The notes under the pieces: model-generated
The model's database searches: none
Told to the model about the DNA's origin: nothing
What the model saw: only the letters and a program-made list of their open reading frames with translations
In this document: in pieces, positions 4,206 through 25,343 of the stretch
Position numbering within the stretch: the stretch's first letter is position 1
How the letters are laid out: each line of letters starts with the position of its first letter
Made by a program: the position numbers and the translations under genes
IMG/VR virus record: IMGVR_UViG_3300033146_000857
Location: 1 to 64,000 of that record
DNA length: 64,000 nucleotides
Reading direction: 5' to 3' (one strand)
Source: a virus

Positions 4206-4448
4206 ATGAACATATTTGAGCTTTGTCCTAAAGGTATGGTTACTGGAGAAAATTGTAAAAAACTTATTTGCCAGTACAAAAATACGAGAGGGCAATGCTC
4301 ACTTATGGGAGCTACAGAAGATAGAGAATACTCTATCGAAGAGATTGCTGAAATTCTTCAAATATCTAGACATAGAGTCTGGAGAATTTACAACAATGTC
4401 TTGGATAAGTTAAAGACCGTCACAAATGAATTTAACTGGGGTAACTAA
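4206..4448 (+). CDS. stand-alone sigma-70 region-4.2-type HTH with an N-terminal 4-Cys segment
   Basis: YSIEEIAEILQISRHRVWRIYNNVLDKLK matches the sigma region 4.2 pattern TLEEIG..L.ISRERVRQI...AL.KL. Confidence 0.7.
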   Translation: MNIFELCPKGMVTGENCKKLICQYKNTRGQCSLMGATEDREYSIEEIAEILQISRHRVWRIYNNVLDKLKTVTNEFNWGN

Positions 4449-5182
4449 TGCCTCGGTTAAATCTACCTTTATTAGAAATTCCTGAAAATAGAATTGTTAC
4501 TAGTCCTACTAATAAAGGATTAACCCCTAGTGTTAATCTAACTGGACTCAACTTGTTTAAGCCTTTTGGTGAAGACATAGTTGATCTAGGAGTACTCTTC
4601 ACTGAAAAACGCTATGAGGTTATAGGCGAAAAAGAACAAACCTCAGAGTGTTCTGATAAATGTCCAGAAGGTATGTATTGGGATTGCTCGGAAGGTCGAT
4701 GTAAGGCATACTCGAGCTATACGGCCACAAAGATTATAGACACCTATGAAGTTATTTTTGAGACTGGAGATGGAACTAAGGCCTATAATATAGAAGGTCT
4801 AAGAGGGTCAATAGATCCTTATGACTTTGGGTATGGACCTCCACAGCCTTGGTCAAGAACAACTCCAACATTAGAAGAACTTTTCTTTATAAATACTACT
4901 GAACAAAGATGTCATGACGTTTCTCCATCTGAAGAGCACCTAGCTCATGGAGCTCAGCCTGATGCGATAGCCTTAAGTACAGAAAGCTTAAATAGCTCTA
5001 GTTACGAGCTAGTAGTAGATAATTTTGGTTATGAGTATAATAGATGCTATGTTGGGTCTGCTTGGGACTATATGAATTTTAGTATGAATATAACTATTCC
5101 AGGAGAAGAGGGCCATAATGGGTCAAATGGTATATATAAGTATACTCATAGATTTAGTGTAACAGTCAAGGGCAATAAATAA
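4448..5182 (+). CDS. family-1 paralog A (constant N-terminus, Cys hinge, variable C-terminus)
   Basis: Shares TNKGL, FKPFG and CSDKCPEGMYWDCSEGRCK with 5182..5988; C-termini unrelated. Confidence 0.75.
   Translation: MPRLNLPLLEIPENRIVTSPTNKGLTPSVNLTGLNLFKPFGEDIVDLGVLFTEKRYEVIGEKEQTSECSDKCPEGMYWDCSEGRCKAYSSYTATKIIDTYEVIFETGDGTKAYNIEGLRGSIDPYDFGYGPPQPWSRTTPTLEELFFINTTEQRCHDVSPSEEHLAHGAQPDAIALSTESLNSSSYELVVDNFGYEYNRCYVGSAWDYMNFSMNITIPGEEGHNGSNGIYKYTHRFSVTVKGNK
4649..4706 (+). repeat. 58-bp perfect direct repeat, copy 1 (copy 2 at 5377-5434)
   Basis: tgttctgataaatgtccagaaggtatgtattgggattgctcggaaggtcgatgtaagg is identical in both genes. Confidence 0.95.
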
Positions 5183-13320: not shown

Positions 13321-13875
13321 ATGAAAGAAATATACAATAGACAGGTTAATTTTCAGAAGCACATGAAGTCTAACAGTGATGTTATGTACAAGGCACTGGT
13401 AGAAGAAATTGGTGAGTGGGTAGCAAGCTTTGGATATGCTGATTGGAAAGAGACAGAGCGTGATGAAGAGAACATTCTAGTTGAAGCTATGGATATATGT
13501 ATATTTGCGATGAACCTATGCTACTATGATTATGTACCTTTTTGGTCTACAACTAGTTTTGACAAAGATTCCAAGACCAAAACGGCCGATATATACTTAG
13601 TTAAGAACGTTAATAAGCTATTGAGTTTAAATAAGTATGCAGATATAGTCTATTATCTTTTCTCTAACTATCCTGAGCTCAAGAGTAGAATAATTTGTAA
13701 GCAAGCTCTAAACACCTTTAGACAGGATAATGGCTATAAGATTGGAAAATATACAAAAATTTGGAATGGCAAAGAAGATAACGTAACAGCCATGGAGTTA
13801 ATAGAAGCTGACCCTGAGCTAAGCTTTGAGGACTTATATACAGCCTTAGATGAAAGGTACTCATGTATCCAATAG
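13321..13875 (+). CDS. dut: dimeric all-alpha dUTPase (Campylobacter type)
   Basis: EEIGE, WK, VEAMD and KQALNTFRQDNGYK.GKY.KIWNGKEDN motifs. Confidence 0.85.
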   Translation: MKEIYNRQVNFQKHMKSNSDVMYKALVEEIGEWVASFGYADWKETERDEENILVEAMDICIFAMNLCYYDYVPFWSTTSFDKDSKTKTADIYLVKNVNKLLSLNKYADIVYYLFSNYPELKSRIICKQALNTFRQDNGYKIGKYTKIWNGKEDNVTAMELIEADPELSFEDLYTALDERYSCIQ

Positions 13876-19887: not shown

Positions 19888-20271
19888 ATGTCTGAGTTTA
19901 TGAAAGACTCTTTGGTAAATTCAAAGCCTAAAATGGCTTTGATACCTCCAGAGTTTAAAATTGATCTAGCTAAACTGCTAACTTTAGGTGGCTATAAGTA
20001 TAACTTTAACAACTGGAAGTTAGCTGCAGAAGATCAGGTAGAAGAATACAGAGATGCTCTAGAACGACACTTGTTAGCTCGTGATTCCGGAGAATACATA
20101 GACAAAGATACAGGTATGCCTCACATAATCTGTGTAGCTTTTAATTCTATGGCTTTACACTATTTTGACCATAAGTTCAAAAATGTAAACGTAGATGAGG
20201 AGTCTTATATAACAAGACTTAAAAATTATAAGGAAAAGAAAAATGCAAGAGACAAAGACCGTATTAGTTGA
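19888..20271 (+). CDS. dATP/dGTP diphosphohydrolase-like protein (DUF5664)
   Basis: KPKMALIP..LT.G..KY...NW...DALERHL....GE..D..TGMPH....FN pattern. Confidence 0.85.
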   Translation: MSEFMKDSLVNSKPKMALIPPEFKIDLAKLLTLGGYKYNFNNWKLAAEDQVEEYRDALERHLLARDSGEYIDKDTGMPHIICVAFNSMALHYFDHKFKNVNVDEESYITRLKNYKEKKNARDKDRIS

Positions 20272-20983
20272 CGTTAATAACTACTTGAAAAGAATCTACC
20301 ATGGTGGTGGAGACCCTTATAGCCTTTTTACTGGTTTAATGAACAAGAATTTATCAAATGAAGTAACTCTTGTTTGTGACACATTTTCATCTAGAAATCA
20401 TAGAAAAAATATTTTAAATACCTATAAGGCTGGTAGACCCCAAGGTGATGATCCTATCTACTGGGAGCTCTATAACAATGCCATAACTATAGGCAGGCAT
20501 TACCCAAATGTAACAGTCATAAATGTGACTGACGGTGAAGCCGATGACTATATCCTATTAAACGCTAAGGCTGGAGATGATGTAATTTCAAATGATAAAG
20601 ATCTATGGCCTTTAATAGCCAAAGACGTGAATATCTTATTAAACGCAACTTCTAAAGTTGATAGACAATTAATAGAAACTAAATTTTATTACCCGGACCC
20701 AGAGTTAATAGTTGCTTATAAATGTCTTGTTGGAGACTCTAGTGATAAGATAATTGGTAAGTACAGATTTGGTATTGCAGCCTATAAAAAATTATCCATA
20801 GATGAACTAAAGTTCTTTCTAGCTTGCCTAAAGAGTGGTATGGAACATGACTTAATTGATGAAAATGTAAAGACTAGTTATGCACTAGTTAAAACATTTC
20901 ACGACATCTCTTATGAGGCTATGGAGCCTTTAGAATTTAGTGACTTAAATAGTTTTTACTCTTCTAAAGGAATAATATGCTAG
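20243..20983 (+). CDS. 5'-3' exonuclease (flap/RNase H type)
   Basis: YKAGR, EADD, SNDKD and GDSSDKI motifs. Confidence 0.9.
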   Translation: MQETKTVLVDVNNYLKRIYHGGGDPYSLFTGLMNKNLSNEVTLVCDTFSSRNHRKNILNTYKAGRPQGDDPIYWELYNNAITIGRHYPNVTVINVTDGEADDYILLNAKAGDDVISNDKDLWPLIAKDVNILLNATSKVDRQLIETKFYYPDPELIVAYKCLVGDSSDKIIGKYRFGIAAYKKLSIDELKFFLACLKSGMEHDLIDENVKTSYALVKTFHDISYEAMEPLEFSDLNSFYSSKGIIC

Positions 20984-22890
20984 TTACATCTAAAAACATA
21001 CAAGAAGCTTTGGATATACTAAAAGAAGACGAAGATGTGATATGGTCTATAGACCTTGAAACATTTTGTCCCATGGATAACTTTGCGCAGATAACAGGTA
21101 AGACTAAGCCTCTAGATAGAATAAACTCTAAGATAGCTTCTTTACAGATAACTACGGCTAAAGAGCATAACTTATATTTTAACTTTGCTCATCTAGATGG
21201 AGACCTAGATTATAAGTATCTTAAAGATATCTTTGAACTAAAACAATCTAACCTACATCTTATAGCTCATAACTTTAACTTTGAGTGGACACTGTTATAC
21301 CTACATGGAGTTGACTTAACTAGGTTTACTTTATGGGATACTATGATAATGGGCTGGTTGAGAAATGAGAATGAGCCTCAAGGACTTAAGCCTAGTATTA
21401 AGAAATATTTTGGGTATGAAATGGCAAGTTATAAAGCTACTGTTGGCGAAGGAACAATGGCTATGATAACTGGAGAAGAAGGTTATGACTATGGTATGGA
21501 TGATGCTATATGGACACTTAAACTTTTCGATTTATACTATGAGTCTATAGATGTTAACTATTATTTAACTTTTGATGAGCCTATAATAAAGTATATAGCT
21601 ATGCACCATGTAAAAGGGCAGCAGGTTAATACTGATATTATAGCTCAGTTTGTAGTAGATGATGAGTCAAAAGCCCAAAAACTACTTAGTGAATTCCCTG
21701 TCTTAAGAGGAGTTAACTTAAATAGTCCAAAACAAATGGCTAACTTACTCTTTAATGAGATGAAACTTCCTCCAGTTAAAGTATCTAGAAAAACTGGTAA
21801 TCCTAGTACAGACAAAGAGACTTTAAATACTCTTATACTAGAACATTCCAAGACTAACCCAGAGTTAGAAGCTTTTGCTGAGATAAAAAAGATAGAAACT
21901 AAGAAAAAATTATACTACAAGCCTTACCCTAGACTAGTTTATCCAGATGGCAGATGGCATAGTGAGATTAGACACTCTGGAACGGTCACTGGTAGATTTA
22001 GCATGAGTAGTCCAAACTTACAACAAATGGCTAAACGTGGTGAGAGTGTTAAAGTGCGAAGAGTCATTGTGCCTAATAAAGAACATGAGTTTATACTGTG
22101 TATTGACTGGTCTCAAATTGAGCTAAGAATGGCTGCTCACATGTCACAAGATCCAAAATTGTTAGACGCCTATAGAACTGAGAAAGACTTACATACGGTT
22201 TCTGGTACTAATATTCTTAACTGCTCTTATGAAAAAATGAAAGAACTACTAGAGACTGGTGACCTAGAAGCCAAAAAGGCTAGGCAAAAGGGTAAAACAC
22301 TAAACTTTGCTGCTCTATATGGCGCAGCTGCAGGTAGACTTAGTAAGTATGATCTATTAGACTGTTCAGTCGGTGAAGCGGAATATTTTTTACAGGCACA
22401 TAAAGAAGGTTATTCTAAGTACTTCTACGACTTTGTTAATGACACTTTAATTGAGGCTAGAAATAAACTTTTTGTAGAAACTATATTCAAGCGTAAGAGA
22501 AGACTTCCAAATTTGACTTCACCTATAAAAGCTCTAAGAATTGATGCTGAACATCAGGCTGTTAATGCTAGAGTTCAAGGTTCTTGTGGAGAACTAATGA
22601 AACTCAGCTTTGCTAGACTTGGTGATGAAGACTTACTATACAATGGTGAATTAGAATTTGTATGCCCAGTACATGATGAATTTGTGTATTCTACTACTCG
22701 TGAAGGAGTACATAAGTATCTAAGACGCATAAAGGAAATAATGGAAATGACTCCTAAAGGTTTCTCAGTTCCTATCATTGCAGCAGCCTCTGTTGGGGTT
22801 AACTTTGCTGACCAAATAGAAATAGAAGATTTAGACAACTTAGACAAGTATCTAGATGAAGCTTTAGCTTATCAATCAAAAGGAAACTAG
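20977..22890 (+). CDS. family A DNA polymerase with 3'-5' exonuclease
   Basis: DLET, AHN, TGRFSMSSPNLQQ, DWSQIELR, KTLNFAALYG and VHDE motifs. Confidence 0.95.
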   Translation: MLVTSKNIQEALDILKEDEDVIWSIDLETFCPMDNFAQITGKTKPLDRINSKIASLQITTAKEHNLYFNFAHLDGDLDYKYLKDIFELKQSNLHLIAHNFNFEWTLLYLHGVDLTRFTLWDTMIMGWLRNENEPQGLKPSIKKYFGYEMASYKATVGEGTMAMITGEEGYDYGMDDAIWTLKLFDLYYESIDVNYYLTFDEPIIKYIAMHHVKGQQVNTDIIAQFVVDDESKAQKLLSEFPVLRGVNLNSPKQMANLLFNEMKLPPVKVSRKTGNPSTDKETLNTLILEHSKTNPELEAFAEIKKIETKKKLYYKPYPRLVYPDGRWHSEIRHSGTVTGRFSMSSPNLQQMAKRGESVKVRRVIVPNKEHEFILCIDWSQIELRMAAHMSQDPKLLDAYRTEKDLHTVSGTNILNCSYEKMKELLETGDLEAKKARQKGKTLNFAALYGAAAGRLSKYDLLDCSVGEAEYFLQAHKEGYSKYFYDFVNDTLIEARNKLFVETIFKRKRRLPNLTSPIKALRIDAEHQAVNARVQGSCGELMKLSFARLGDEDLLYNGELEFVCPVHDEFVYSTTREGVHKYLRRIKEIMEMTPKGFSVPIIAAASVGVNFADQIEIEDLDNLDKYLDEALAYQSKGN

Positions 22891-22891
22891 C

Positions 22892-23707
22892 ATGAGCGCC
22901 TTTGACCTAGTCTATAAAAATGCTCTAGACCACGTGCTAAACACTGGAGTTAAGACCAAAAATAAGCGTACTGGAAGTATCATGTTAGAAACACATGGAT
23001 ATTCATTTGACTACGACATGAGTGTCTTACCAAGGCTGTTCATAAGAAAAACCTGGATTAGTTCTGCTGCGGCTGAGCTAGCTTGGTTTTTATCTGGTAC
23101 AAAAGATGCTACATGGGTAAACAGTCGTACTAATATCTGGAAAGATTTTACTGACCAAGATGGGAATATTCCCACTGCTTATGGCTACAGATGGTCACAC
23201 CTATGGGGATACGACCAAGTTAGCAACATCTTAGTTAAACTTAGAGCTGACCCAACTTCTAGACAACAAGTTTTGTTAACTTGGGATCCTATGAACGACA
23301 ACAGAATAGGCTCTAAGAATATTCCTTGTCCATTTGTCTACGTGGTGAATACTGTAGGAAACAGGCTGAATTTACACTTAACTGTTAGATCAAACGACAC
23401 TTGGTTAGGCTTACCTTATGATGTAATGACTGCTTGTTTGCTTGGTAGAGCTTTAGCCAACAGTTTAAACATTGACCTGGGCAGCTTGCATTATTCAGTG
23501 GCTAATCTACATCTGTATGAAAATCAGTTTGAATTAGCCAAAGAAGCTGTTGATATAGAAATACTACATGATGTGTCTGTGCCTAATGAGTCTTTAAAGA
23601 CTATCTTAGATATAAGATCAGACATGGACAGCTACCATGAAAGCTTCAAATGCCTAGATGAGTATAACTTCTCTGGTTGGAAACCAAAAGTTAATGTGGT
23701 CAAATAA
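22892..23707 (+). CDS. thymidylate-synthase-family enzyme, possibly dCMP-specific
   Basis: ELAWFLSG, AYGYRW, catalytic PC, RSND..LGLPYD (Asp where ThyA has Asn) and HLYEN. Confidence 0.9.
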   Translation: MSAFDLVYKNALDHVLNTGVKTKNKRTGSIMLETHGYSFDYDMSVLPRLFIRKTWISSAAAELAWFLSGTKDATWVNSRTNIWKDFTDQDGNIPTAYGYRWSHLWGYDQVSNILVKLRADPTSRQQVLLTWDPMNDNRIGSKNIPCPFVYVVNTVGNRLNLHLTVRSNDTWLGLPYDVMTACLLGRALANSLNIDLGSLHYSVANLHLYENQFELAKEAVDIEILHDVSVPNESLKTILDIRSDMDSYHESFKCLDEYNFSGWKPKVNVVK

Positions 23708-24128
23708 TTTCTGGATGGACCTAGTCTATAAGTTTGCTACTCAAAGTTACGCTAAGAAGAAAAAAGTAGCTTGTATCTTAGTGAAGAACAAGCATTTTGT
23801 CTCGGCTGGAGTTAACGGAACTTTAAGTGTTTTATCTAACTGCTGTGAAGATAAGCAGGGTAGAAGCATGCACGATGTAGTCGTGCATGCTGAAATGAAT
23901 GCAATAGCCAATGCTAGCAACAAAAATGATATAGCTGGAAGTACTGCTTATCTAAACTATGGACCTTGTGAAAACTGTGCAAAAACCCTCTTACAGTTTG
24001 GAATAAAAAAGCTCTATATAAAAGGGGATATAAAATATCCTGAAGTGATCCAAACGTGTATAGATTATTTAGGAGTAGAAAATGTTGAAATTGAAGAGCC
24101 CTGTGAAGAAGACAGAGACTGGTGTTAG
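23658..24128 (+). CDS. dCMP deaminase
   Basis: HAEMNAI and PCENC zinc motifs; the true start may be 23694. Confidence 0.9.
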   Translation: MSITSLVGNQKLMWSNNFWMDLVYKFATQSYAKKKKVACILVKNKHFVSAGVNGTLSVLSNCCEDKQGRSMHDVVVHAEMNAIANASNKNDIAGSTAYLNYGPCENCAKTLLQFGIKKLYIKGDIKYPEVIQTCIDYLGVENVEIEEPCEEDRDWC

Positions 24129-24393
24129 CAATAAAATAGTTAATAAGCCTTTAAAAATGAGCTTTGGTAGCTCAAAAGAAGTAGATCAAAGCTATAAGAT
24201 TGACCAAATGAAAAATCCTTACATAGAAGAGGCAAAAAGAATGAGTTTGGTTAGGCTGGTAGATATCTGGAAAATAGCCTTTGAAAGGTTGAAAGATAGA
24301 AGACTATTAGGAGATGACCTACTTAGGTATAAGGCTGTAAAATCTATACTAACGTTTAAACACAGAGTCGAACTACCTAAAGATGGTAAATAA
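24082..24393 (+). CDS. hypothetical basic protein
   Basis: ORF with AGGAG RBS. Confidence 0.55.
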   Translation: MLKLKSPVKKTETGVSNKIVNKPLKMSFGSSKEVDQSYKIDQMKNPYIEEAKRMSLVRLVDIWKIAFERLKDRRLLGDDLLRYKAVKSILTFKHRVELPKDGK

Positions 24394-24439
24394 GATTCTA
24401 TGCTTAATCTTGTAGTATAATTTATGAATAGGATATGAA

Positions 24440-24913
24440 ATGGTAGGCTTAATGTTAGCTAATCAACTAAACATAGTTGCTGGCAAAGATGGCAAGATAA
24501 TAGAAGGACCTGTAGAAGATAAGAAGTGGCTTAGAGAAACAATAGCTTCTAAGGTAGTGGTAGTTGGTAAGACTACCTGGGATAAAGATATATCTAAATA
24601 TCCTAAGTTAGTCGAACAAGCACTACTCTGGCTGGTATTGACTACTAAAGCATACCAGCCTGCTGGACACATAAATGTTAAATTTGTGTCCGCCAAAGAA
24701 CTTAAAATCTATAAGGTTAAATACTGCCTAGGAGGTCCTAAGACAATAGAAATACTAAAGCCGGATCGTTTGATAATTCATAGAGTTGTGGATAAAACCA
24801 CTAAAGGAACAAAGATCAACCTTGAGGATTATCTCCTAACTAAATGTAGACGGAGAGACTCTTATACTCAAGAATACTATGATCTAATTAAGGATAAAAA
24901 TGCCAAAGCTTAA
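24440..24913 (+). CDS. divergent dihydrofolate reductase
   Basis: G.DGKI, EDKKW, VVVGKTTW, LVLTT and CLGGPK motifs; weak promoter copy at 24408-24421. Confidence 0.75.
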   Translation: MVGLMLANQLNIVAGKDGKIIEGPVEDKKWLRETIASKVVVVGKTTWDKDISKYPKLVEQALLWLVLTTKAYQPAGHINVKFVSAKELKIYKVKYCLGGPKTIEILKPDRLIIHRVVDKTTKGTKINLEDYLLTKCRRRDSYTQEYYDLIKDKNAKA

Positions 24914-25343
24914 TGATGGTATGGCTAGTCAGAGAATATACCTAGAATTACTAAAGGACGAAATGAAATTTGATATAAACTTTGTAGTGTCAGAATTTGT
25001 GGACACTAGAAAGGCTAGAAATTTTGTTGCCGCAAACCCTTCAGACTTATTTGCATGCTATAAGGCTGCTCCGTGGTTAATAGAGGTTAAATCAACTATC
25101 GATAGAGCTAGATTTCCTATGAAAAATATCAAAGGAACTCAATTTGGTATAGGACGTAGATATAGGTTATCTGGATGGAACTACATGTTTGTTATTCATC
25201 ATGTCTCTTGGGATACTTGGTATTTCGTACCCTTTGACTTTATGTATGAGAAGTCTACCTCTGGTATAAAGTCTTTAAAATGGGAAGACTTAAAGGTGTT
25301 CGCTAAGAACAAAGATCATAAATTTTGGAGTATACATGAGTGA
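24900..25343 (+). CDS. RecU-like PD-(D/E)XK Holliday junction resolvase
   Basis: PSDLF...LIEVKST...FP..NI...Q pattern. Confidence 0.75.
   Translation: MPKLNDGMASQRIYLELLKDEMKFDINFVVSEFVDTRKARNFVAANPSDLFACYKAAPWLIEVKSTIDRARFPMKNIKGTQFGIGRRYRLSGWNYMFVIHHVSWDTWYFVPFDFMYEKSTSGIKSLKWEDLKVFAKNKDHKFWSIHE

Follow-up and report, generated by a model that had tools for sequence, protein, structure and literature searches.

The window considered here covers the leading 64 kb of an IMG/VR virus record of 96,471 bp (IMGVR_UViG_3300033146_000857), which has direct terminal repeats and a completeness estimate of 100%; the G+C content of the window is approximately 36%. On its plus strand, beginning with a homologue of the thymidylate synthase ThyA at 22892-23707, lies a gene cassette that most probably constitutes a deoxycytidine monophosphate (dCMP) methylase system of the type found in phage Xp12. 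Judged from its sequence, such a system would yield DNA with 5-methylcytosine (5mC) in place of cytosine and would also furnish thymidine nucleotides from the pool of 5-methyldeoxycytidine (5mdC) nucleotides. The cassette comprises the following features, where DHFR stands for dihydrofolate reductase and ORF for open reading frame:

22892-23707, plus strand: ThyA-family protein (271 amino acids (aa); PF00303), predicted deoxycytidylate C5-methyltransferase (5-methyl-dCMP, or 5mdCMP, synthase)
Key codons of the ThyA homologue, plus strand: Asn143 at 23318-23320, Cys146 at 23327-23329, Pro147 at 23330-23332, Asp177 at 23420-23422
23694-24128, plus strand: dCMP-deaminase-family zinc deaminase (PF00383, 65 bits; phrog_174), a single domain with HAE and PCxxC motifs
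24157-24393, plus strand: small conserved ORF (about 80-100 aa) between the deaminase and DHFR-like genes, open from 24082, start uncertain
24440-24913, plus strand: highly divergent DHFR-fold protein by AlphaFold2 and Foldseek, predicted dihydrofolate reductase

The product of ORF 22892-23707 matches PF00303 with 151.8 bits, the cut-off being 24.3. A sequence-only reading of this DNA had claimed that the protein carries Asp at the position of ThyA Asn177 and that the motif PCP replaces PCH, and both claims are borne out. Read directly from the DNA, CCT-TGT-CCA at 23324-23332 encodes Pro145-Cys146-Pro147, and GAT at 23420-23422 encodes Asp177, which lies inside RSNDTWLGLPYD (residues 166-177). 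In HMMER alignments to solved synthases and MAFFT alignments with E. coli ThyA, Pro147 falls opposite His147 of the E. coli enzyme and Asp177 opposite its Asn177. Because Asp177 is invariant and Pro147 nearly so among the 15 closest homologues, the two residues are a trait of the family and not a sequencing error. The catalytic set of the protein is complete (R21, E58, W80, Y94, R126, C146, R166, S167, D169, H207 and Y209), residue 83 is Phe, residue 169 is Asp and the C-terminal tail is of ThyA length. Arg127 is replaced by Gln, as it is in RDJL Phi 1 and many members of the clade described below.

It is useful to set these residues against the specificity determinants that have been worked out for the ThyA superfamily. 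At residue 177, Asn selects deoxyuridine monophosphate (dUMP) and Asp selects dCMP; at residue 143, Leu leads to methyl products and Asp or Glu to hydroxymethyl products; and Asn at residue 169 marks the 5-hydroxy-dCMP synthases of the RB69 gp48 / DLP3 gp80 type (PMC13326640). Residues 147 and 177 are the two best discriminators between modified and unmodified viral contigs (PMC8670742). Later papers cite Hardy & Nalivaika 1992 and Liu & Santi 1992 for the conversion of the E. coli and L. casei synthases into dCMP methylases by the Asn-to-Asp change. The residues at positions 143, 147, 165 and 177 are distributed as follows:

Seven canonical synthases: Leu, mostly His, mostly Gln, Asn
SPO1-like and ViI-like dUMP hydroxymethylases: Asp, Asn, Asn, Asn
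T4 gp42 and about 90 metagenomic relatives: Asp, Thr, Met, Asp
Xp12, AXL1, PaMx74, Donnerlittchen and RDJL Phi 1: Asn, Pro, Leu or Ile, Asp (also Phe83)
Window protein: Asn, Pro, Val, Asp

At none of these positions does the window protein carry the canonical ThyA residue (Asn177, Leu143, His147, Gln165). Nor does it bear the marks of a hydroxymethylase, having Asn143 where Asp or Glu would be expected and Pro147 and Val165 in place of the Thr147 and Met165 of gp42, and its Asp169, as in Xp12, differs from the Asn169 of 5-hydroxy-dCMP synthases. Within the 12-residue shell defined by proximity to C5 (residues within 6 A, as listed in PMC13326640), the window protein reads W Y K N C P V S N D G D and the Xp12 protein W Y K N C P L S S D G D, with 10 of the 12 residues identical. 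As a separate observation, the metagenomic ThyA homologues with the gp42-like combination Asp143/Thr147/Met165/Asp177 (about 90 proteins, P0029-P0099, many on contigs of about 40 kb) carry a distinctive LWRxNN C-terminus and, by these residues, probably represent a large dCMP hydroxymethylase family of uncultured phages.

A phylogeny with ThyA and hydroxymethylases, which had been proposed together with the claims above, groups the window protein with Xp12 and outside the hydroxymethylases. The IQ-TREE analysis (LG+G4, 66 sequences, 274 columns) included seven canonical ThyA proteins and two dUMP-hydroxymethylase references, an earlier run with one canonical ThyA having given a polytomy; support is quoted as the Shimodaira-Hasegawa-like approximate likelihood ratio test over the ultrafast bootstrap (SH-aLRT/UFBoot). 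The 43 Asn143/Asp177 proteins, among them those of the window, Xp12, AXL1, PaMx74, Donnerlittchen and RDJL Phi 1, form one clade (93.5/96) in which Asp177 is present in all 43 members. The seven canonical synthases form a separate clade (98.8/100) that is sister to the first (87.6/98); the hydroxymethylases fall outside both. The window protein itself lies within a 15-member subclade (91.7/98), and the node representing its common ancestor with Xp12 is supported at 98.6/100. FastTree gave a concordant placement (support 0.914), and the BLAST bit scores of the window protein run from 140 to 166 against Xp12-type proteins, compared with 93 against E. coli ThyA and 45 against T4 gp42. Two further features of the clade are worth recording. 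A subclade within it (P0021, P0022 and P0027) has an intermediate signature, with the canonical-like His147 and Gln165 yet Asn143 and Asp177, and one member, P0015, is labelled 'thymidylate synthase [Candidatus Parcubacteria bacterium]' and has Phe83, Pro147, Ile165 and Asp177.

The cultured members of this clade provide the functional context. In Xp12 DNA, 5mC replaces all of the cytosine, and PaMx74 likewise replaces cytosine with 5mC (bioRxiv 10.1101/2024.12.05.627091), and AXL1 DNA resists restriction enzymes whose recognition sites contain G/C (PMC9206674). Together with the deoxynucleoside monophosphate (dNMP) kinase of T4, the Xp12 ThyA homologue gives rise to 5mdC in E. coli DNA, as do five of seven metagenomic Asp177 homologues that adjoin deaminases (bioRxiv 10.1101/2024.12.05.627091). 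The same study screened IMG/VR for viral contigs carrying both PF00383 and a PF00303 protein with Asp at N177; it found dCMP-deaminase genes at most 3 kb from a thymidylate synthase gene in 70% of cases on modified-cytosine contigs versus 6% on unmodified ones, and DNA_pol_A and its exonuclease domain among the commonest deaminase neighbours (bioRxiv 10.1101/2024.12.05.627091).

The deaminase gene of the window is tightly linked to the ThyA homologue, and the earlier claim that the two genes overlap holds, the likely overlap being 14 nucleotides: the deaminase ORF is open from 23658, and alignment with relatives makes the ATG at 23694 its most likely real start, ahead of the TAA at 23705-23707 that ends the Thy gene. 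A PF00383 zinc deaminase gene adjoins an Asp177 ThyA homologue, as for deaminases of the mSCD type, and in 15 of 17 related loci a deaminase match falls inside the Thy gene or immediately behind it. The best solved relative of the protein is 4P9C (E 7.6e-18), with 7FH4 matched as well. The window deaminase is predicted to act on 5-methyl-dC nucleotides. As to the level at which such enzymes work, mSCD-B5 deaminated 99% of the triphosphate 5mdCTP in 30 min versus 4% of dCTP, with dCMP and 5mdCMP inactive as substrates, and the authors propose that conversion of 5mdCTP to dTTP by such deaminases removes the need for a dUMP-dependent synthase (bioRxiv 10.1101/2024.12.05.627091).

The presence of a DHFR gene in the cassette, also claimed from the sequence alone, stands at the level of the fold (AlphaFold2, Foldseek) and fails by Pfam sequence score. 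The product of 24440-24913 scores 15.5 bits against DHFR_1 (PF00186), below the Pfam gathering cut-off of 25. A word-indexed search recovered two members of its family, one of them the window's own, and an exhaustive HMMER search recovered 14, only four of which have a DHFR_1 match of any kind. When a profile was built from these 14 proteins, its matches in the PDB were all DHFR-containing chains (65 at E <= 1, best 0.0017). The AlphaFold2 model has a predicted local distance difference test score (pLDDT) of 91.6 and a predicted template modelling score (pTM) of 0.86, and among the Foldseek matches listed (ranks 1-50) all are DHFR, with TM scores of 0.63-0.77; at the level of the predicted model, the DHFR fold is confirmed. 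The protein keeps the catalytic acid Asp27 and the NADPH-binding residues Gly43, Thr46 and Gly95-Gly96. Trp22 is Glu in the window protein and its nearest relatives and Trp in many others. The dCMP methylase reaction is listed as EC 2.1.1.54 and has dihydrofolate as its co-product, and the modelled fold leads to the prediction that the DHFR-like protein recycles the dihydrofolate made by the methylase. The AXL1 DHFR raises the minimum inhibitory concentration of trimethoprim in E. coli from <1 to >256 ug/mL (PMC9206674), and the very divergent DHFR of the window is a possible trimethoprim-insensitive reductase.

Between the deaminase and DHFR-like genes, the small ORF has no match in Pfam, PHROG or the protein Atlas. 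Its C-terminal portion of about 55 residues, with a W-K ... Y-K ... L-P-K pattern, is conserved in four related loci (L010, L013, L014 and L015), and it could be a part of the cassette that has so far gone unrecognised. In PaMx74 (L007), an unannotated 400-bp gap between cd and frd at 4287-4688 contains a 141-aa open frame in the same position, and no sequence similarity was seen between that frame and the small ORF of the window.

The surroundings of the cassette include genes of nucleotide metabolism and replication:

13321-13875, plus strand: all-alpha nucleoside triphosphate (NTP) pyrophosphohydrolase of the dUTPase_2 / phrog_173 kind (PF08761, 26 bits, cut-off 22.9; phrog_173, 4e-7)
19888-20271, plus strand: PF18909 protein (dATP/dGTP diphosphohydrolase N-terminal, MazZ-like; 78.5 bits; phrog_801), three genes upstream of the Thy homologue
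20243-20983, plus strand: 5'-3' exonuclease, ahead of the polymerase gene (PF02739, PF00476 and PF01612 matches across 20243-22890, shared with the next gene)
20977-22890, plus strand: family-A DNA polymerase, directly upstream of the ThyA homologue
24900-25343, plus strand: resolvase/nuclease-like protein after the DHFR-like gene (phrog_843, 1.5e-12), conserved in L010 and L013-L015

The order on the plus strand is thus PF18909 protein, exonuclease, polymerase, ThyA homologue, deaminase, small ORF, DHFR-like gene, resolvase-like gene and Mre11/SbcC-like genes. IMG/VR relatives, whose contigs measure about 44-76 kb, keep this order from the exonuclease onwards (exonuclease, PolA, thy, cd, small ORF or gap, frd-like, resolvase-like, Mre11, SbcC), with the exonuclease and polymerase upstream of thy in L010 and L013-L015. 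L010 (IMGVR_UViG_3300003177_000121) is the closest relative, at 69% identity; its polymerase, Thy and deaminase genes look split or truncated (400 + 267 aa, 212 aa and 128 aa), which may reflect frameshifts or assembly errors. All five named phages (Xp12, AXL1, PaMx74, RDJL Phi 1 and Donnerlittchen) have thy, cd and frd followed by a gene of about 150 aa, and each has a PRA-PH pyrophosphohydrolase gene directly upstream of thy. A BLAST comparison of ORF 24900-25343 with the gene that follows frd in the Xp12-type phages gave E values of only 0.07-0.4, so homology is not established.

With regard to the nucleotide pool, in L022 (3905-4957) a gene immediately upstream of an Asp177 Thy homologue encodes a fusion of PF18909 to PRA-PH, which suggests that the PF18909 domain belongs to the toolkit of cytosine replacement; the PF18909 protein of the window is, by this comparison, a candidate partner in the editing of the pool. 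The protein at 13321-13875 is likewise a candidate, in this case for a dCTPase/dUTPase that would provide dCMP and keep dCTP out. Neither a second ThyA nor any ThyX is found in the complete 96,471-bp genome, so the DHFR has no other phage-encoded client, and a search of the genome for a Tet/JBP dioxygenase and a C5 DNA methyltransferase found neither. Elsewhere in the genome, beyond the window, a 795-aa protein at 90331-92718 (L029:10331-12715) matches only the insertion domain of the B12-dependent ribonucleotide reductase, and that gene probably encodes a class II enzyme of this kind. About 30 other ORFs of the early region were compared with Pfam and PHROG, and most had no match. As a megablast of the 20-kb segment 15000-35000 against 50,697 phage records returned no match, the phage has no cultured near relative.

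From these elements, a scheme can be drawn for how the system would operate. One or both of the pyrophosphohydrolase-like proteins (13321-13875 and 19888-20271) may convert dCTP to dCMP and so keep cytosine out of the DNA. The Thy homologue, in which the base-reading Asn177 is Asp, would for that reason bind dCMP rather than dUMP and, keeping the reductive chemistry of thymidylate synthase, would convert dCMP and methylenetetrahydrofolate to 5mdCMP and dihydrofolate; the DHFR-fold protein would then regenerate tetrahydrofolate. Phosphorylation of 5mdCMP to 5mdCTP would probably fall to host kinases, since no phage kinase was found, and incorporation of 5mdCTP by the family-A polymerase of the phage would produce DNA with 5mC replacing cytosine. 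In parallel, the translationally coupled deaminase would draw on some of the 5-methyl-dC nucleotides to make thymidine nucleotides, which would render a dUMP-dependent thymidylate synthase dispensable; by analogy with mSCD-B5, the step would be that from 5mdCTP to dTTP. The central proposal of the sequence-only reading, that the enzyme makes 5-methyl-dCMP, is therefore favoured by the active-site signature, the phylogeny, the synteny with deaminase and DHFR-fold genes and the status of the protein as the sole ThyA/ThyX homologue. Its further suggestion, either a 5mC genome or a route to dTMP by methylation and then deamination, fits the literature in that both have been proposed for Xp12-type phages (bioRxiv 10.1101/2024.12.05.627091), and needs amendment in that the bypass could operate on triphosphates, mSCD-B5 acting on 5mdCTP and not on 5mdCMP.

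Several observations weigh against this scheme. The window protein is only 31-37% identical to the characterised Xp12-type enzymes and lies in a different subclade, and in the published assay two of seven Asp177 homologues failed to produce 5mdC (bioRxiv 10.1101/2024.12.05.627091). The closest solved relative of the deaminase is an ordinary dCMP deaminase (4P9C), and selectivity for 5mC among deaminases is reportedly polyphyletic and without a published sequence signature (bioRxiv 10.1101/2024.12.05.627091). The DHFR-like protein misses the Pfam cut-off and has Glu at Trp22. Finally, no PRA-PH domain was found in the genome, and no dNMP kinase either, a Walker-A scan of all ORFs having returned primase/helicase-like, SbcC-like and tape-measure proteins only. 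It is conceivable, if unlikely, that 5mdCMP is an intermediate only, nearly all of it being deaminated to thymidine nucleotides along a dUMP-independent route while the phage DNA contains ordinary cytosine. The lack of a clear PRA-PH-type dCTPase in the genome would fit such an arrangement, as would the tight coupling of the deaminase to the only ThyA/ThyX homologue and the occurrence of the Parcubacteria-labelled P0015 in the same clade; it is harder to reconcile with the replacement of cytosine by 5mC in the cultured clade members Xp12 and PaMx74, with the resistance of AXL1 DNA to enzymes that have G/C in their sites, and with the two NTP pyrophosphohydrolase-like genes, which could remove dCTP.

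The chemistry of the enzyme invites similar scrutiny. ThyA homologues are chemically versatile (PMC13326640), Asp177 is common to the window protein and gp42, and the two tested homologues that yielded no 5mdC could be taken to indicate a different product, so that the protein might be a T4 gp42-like dCMP hydroxymethylase or might make another C5 derivative such as 5-hydroxy-dCMP, as the first step to a hypermodified cytosine. We regard this as very unlikely in view of Asn143 in place of Asp or Glu, Asp169 in place of Asn, Pro147 and Val165 in place of the gp42-type Thr147 and Met165, a C-terminal tail of ThyA length and a position outside the hydroxymethylase groups in both trees. Moreover, hydroxymethylation leaves folate unoxidised, yet a DHFR partner is conserved, and the genome search turned up no Tet/JBP or C5 DNA methyltransferase. 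It is more improbable still that the protein is an ordinary dUMP thymidylate synthase, or an enzyme of dual substrate, that acts alongside a conventional dCMP deaminase and a DHFR in the manner of T4 cd/td/frd. All seven canonical synthases have Asn177 and Leu143, and most have His147 and Gln165, none of which the window protein possesses; the Asn-to-Asp conversion of the E. coli and L. casei enzymes, as cited from the two 1992 reports, argues in the same direction, and the Xp12 homologue of the same signature makes 5mdC. These points must be set beside a gene order that fits the classical dTMP cycle, the annotation of related phage records in those terms and the resemblance of the deaminase to a dCMP deaminase.

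Even if the Xp12-type system is the correct assignment, the lineage is deeply separate from the Xp12 group and has, besides an additional small ORF, a DHFR-fold protein without Trp22. It could follow a variant of the pathway that has not been described. This might be a complete route at the monophosphate level from dCMP through 5mdCMP to dTMP, or a partner in the folate cycle whose substrate or inhibitor properties are changed, in either case with the conserved protein of about 80 aa as a new component of the complex; we consider such a variant distinctly unlikely.

The association of an Asp177 ThyA homologue with a PF00383 deaminase is already known, having been mined from viromes and from IMG/VR and tested experimentally, and the window cassette is a new, divergent member of this known system. 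The accepted picture of how Xp12-type phages work stays unchanged. What is added is one more lineage, an uncultured phage of 96 kb, for which replacement of cytosine by 5-methylcytosine is predicted, and the thy-cd-frd arrangement and the four-residue co-varying signature (Asn143, Pro147, hydrophobic 165 and Asp177) hold well beyond the cultured siphophages of the Xp12/PaMx74 type. Genes of this kind are routinely mislabelled 'thymidylate synthase', and the deaminase linked to this one falls in a class now used for enzymatic 5mC sequencing.

The Xp12 module (ThyA homologue QNN97214.1, deaminase QNN97213.1 and DHFR QNN97212.1) shares Phe83, Asn143, Pro147, a hydrophobic residue 165, Asp169 and Asp177 with the window. 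The Xp12-type phages and the window fall in the same maximum-likelihood clade and have in common the order thy-cd-frd followed by a gene of about 150 aa; each has just one ThyA homologue, with a family-A polymerase close by. The window phage, at 96 kb, is nonetheless unrelated to the Xp12 group; it has separate PF18909 and dUTPase_2-like genes in place of the PRA-PH gene upstream of thy, an extra small ORF between cd and frd, and a far more divergent DHFR. Among the Asp177 ThyA proteins and mSCD-type deaminases from metaviromes (Yang et al. 2021, eLife, PMC8670742; bioRxiv 10.1101/2024.12.05.627091), the screened configuration is matched exactly by the window, including the co-localised DNA_pol_A and exonuclease. 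T4 gp42 resembles the window protein in belonging to the ThyA superfamily, in having Asp at the specificity position and in serving cytosine replacement at the nucleotide level, but it differs in Asp143, Thr147 and Met165, in the absence of a ThyA-like C-terminal tail and in its place beyond the clade; in T4, frd and cd moreover serve a separate canonical td, whereas the window phage has a single ThyA homologue. The engineered enzymes E. coli N177D and L. casei N229D, as cited in later papers, follow the same single-residue logic from dUMP to dCMP with reductive methylation kept. To this change, the natural clade adds the co-varying substitutions L143N, H147P, Q165V/L/I and W83F, which the engineered point mutants do not have.

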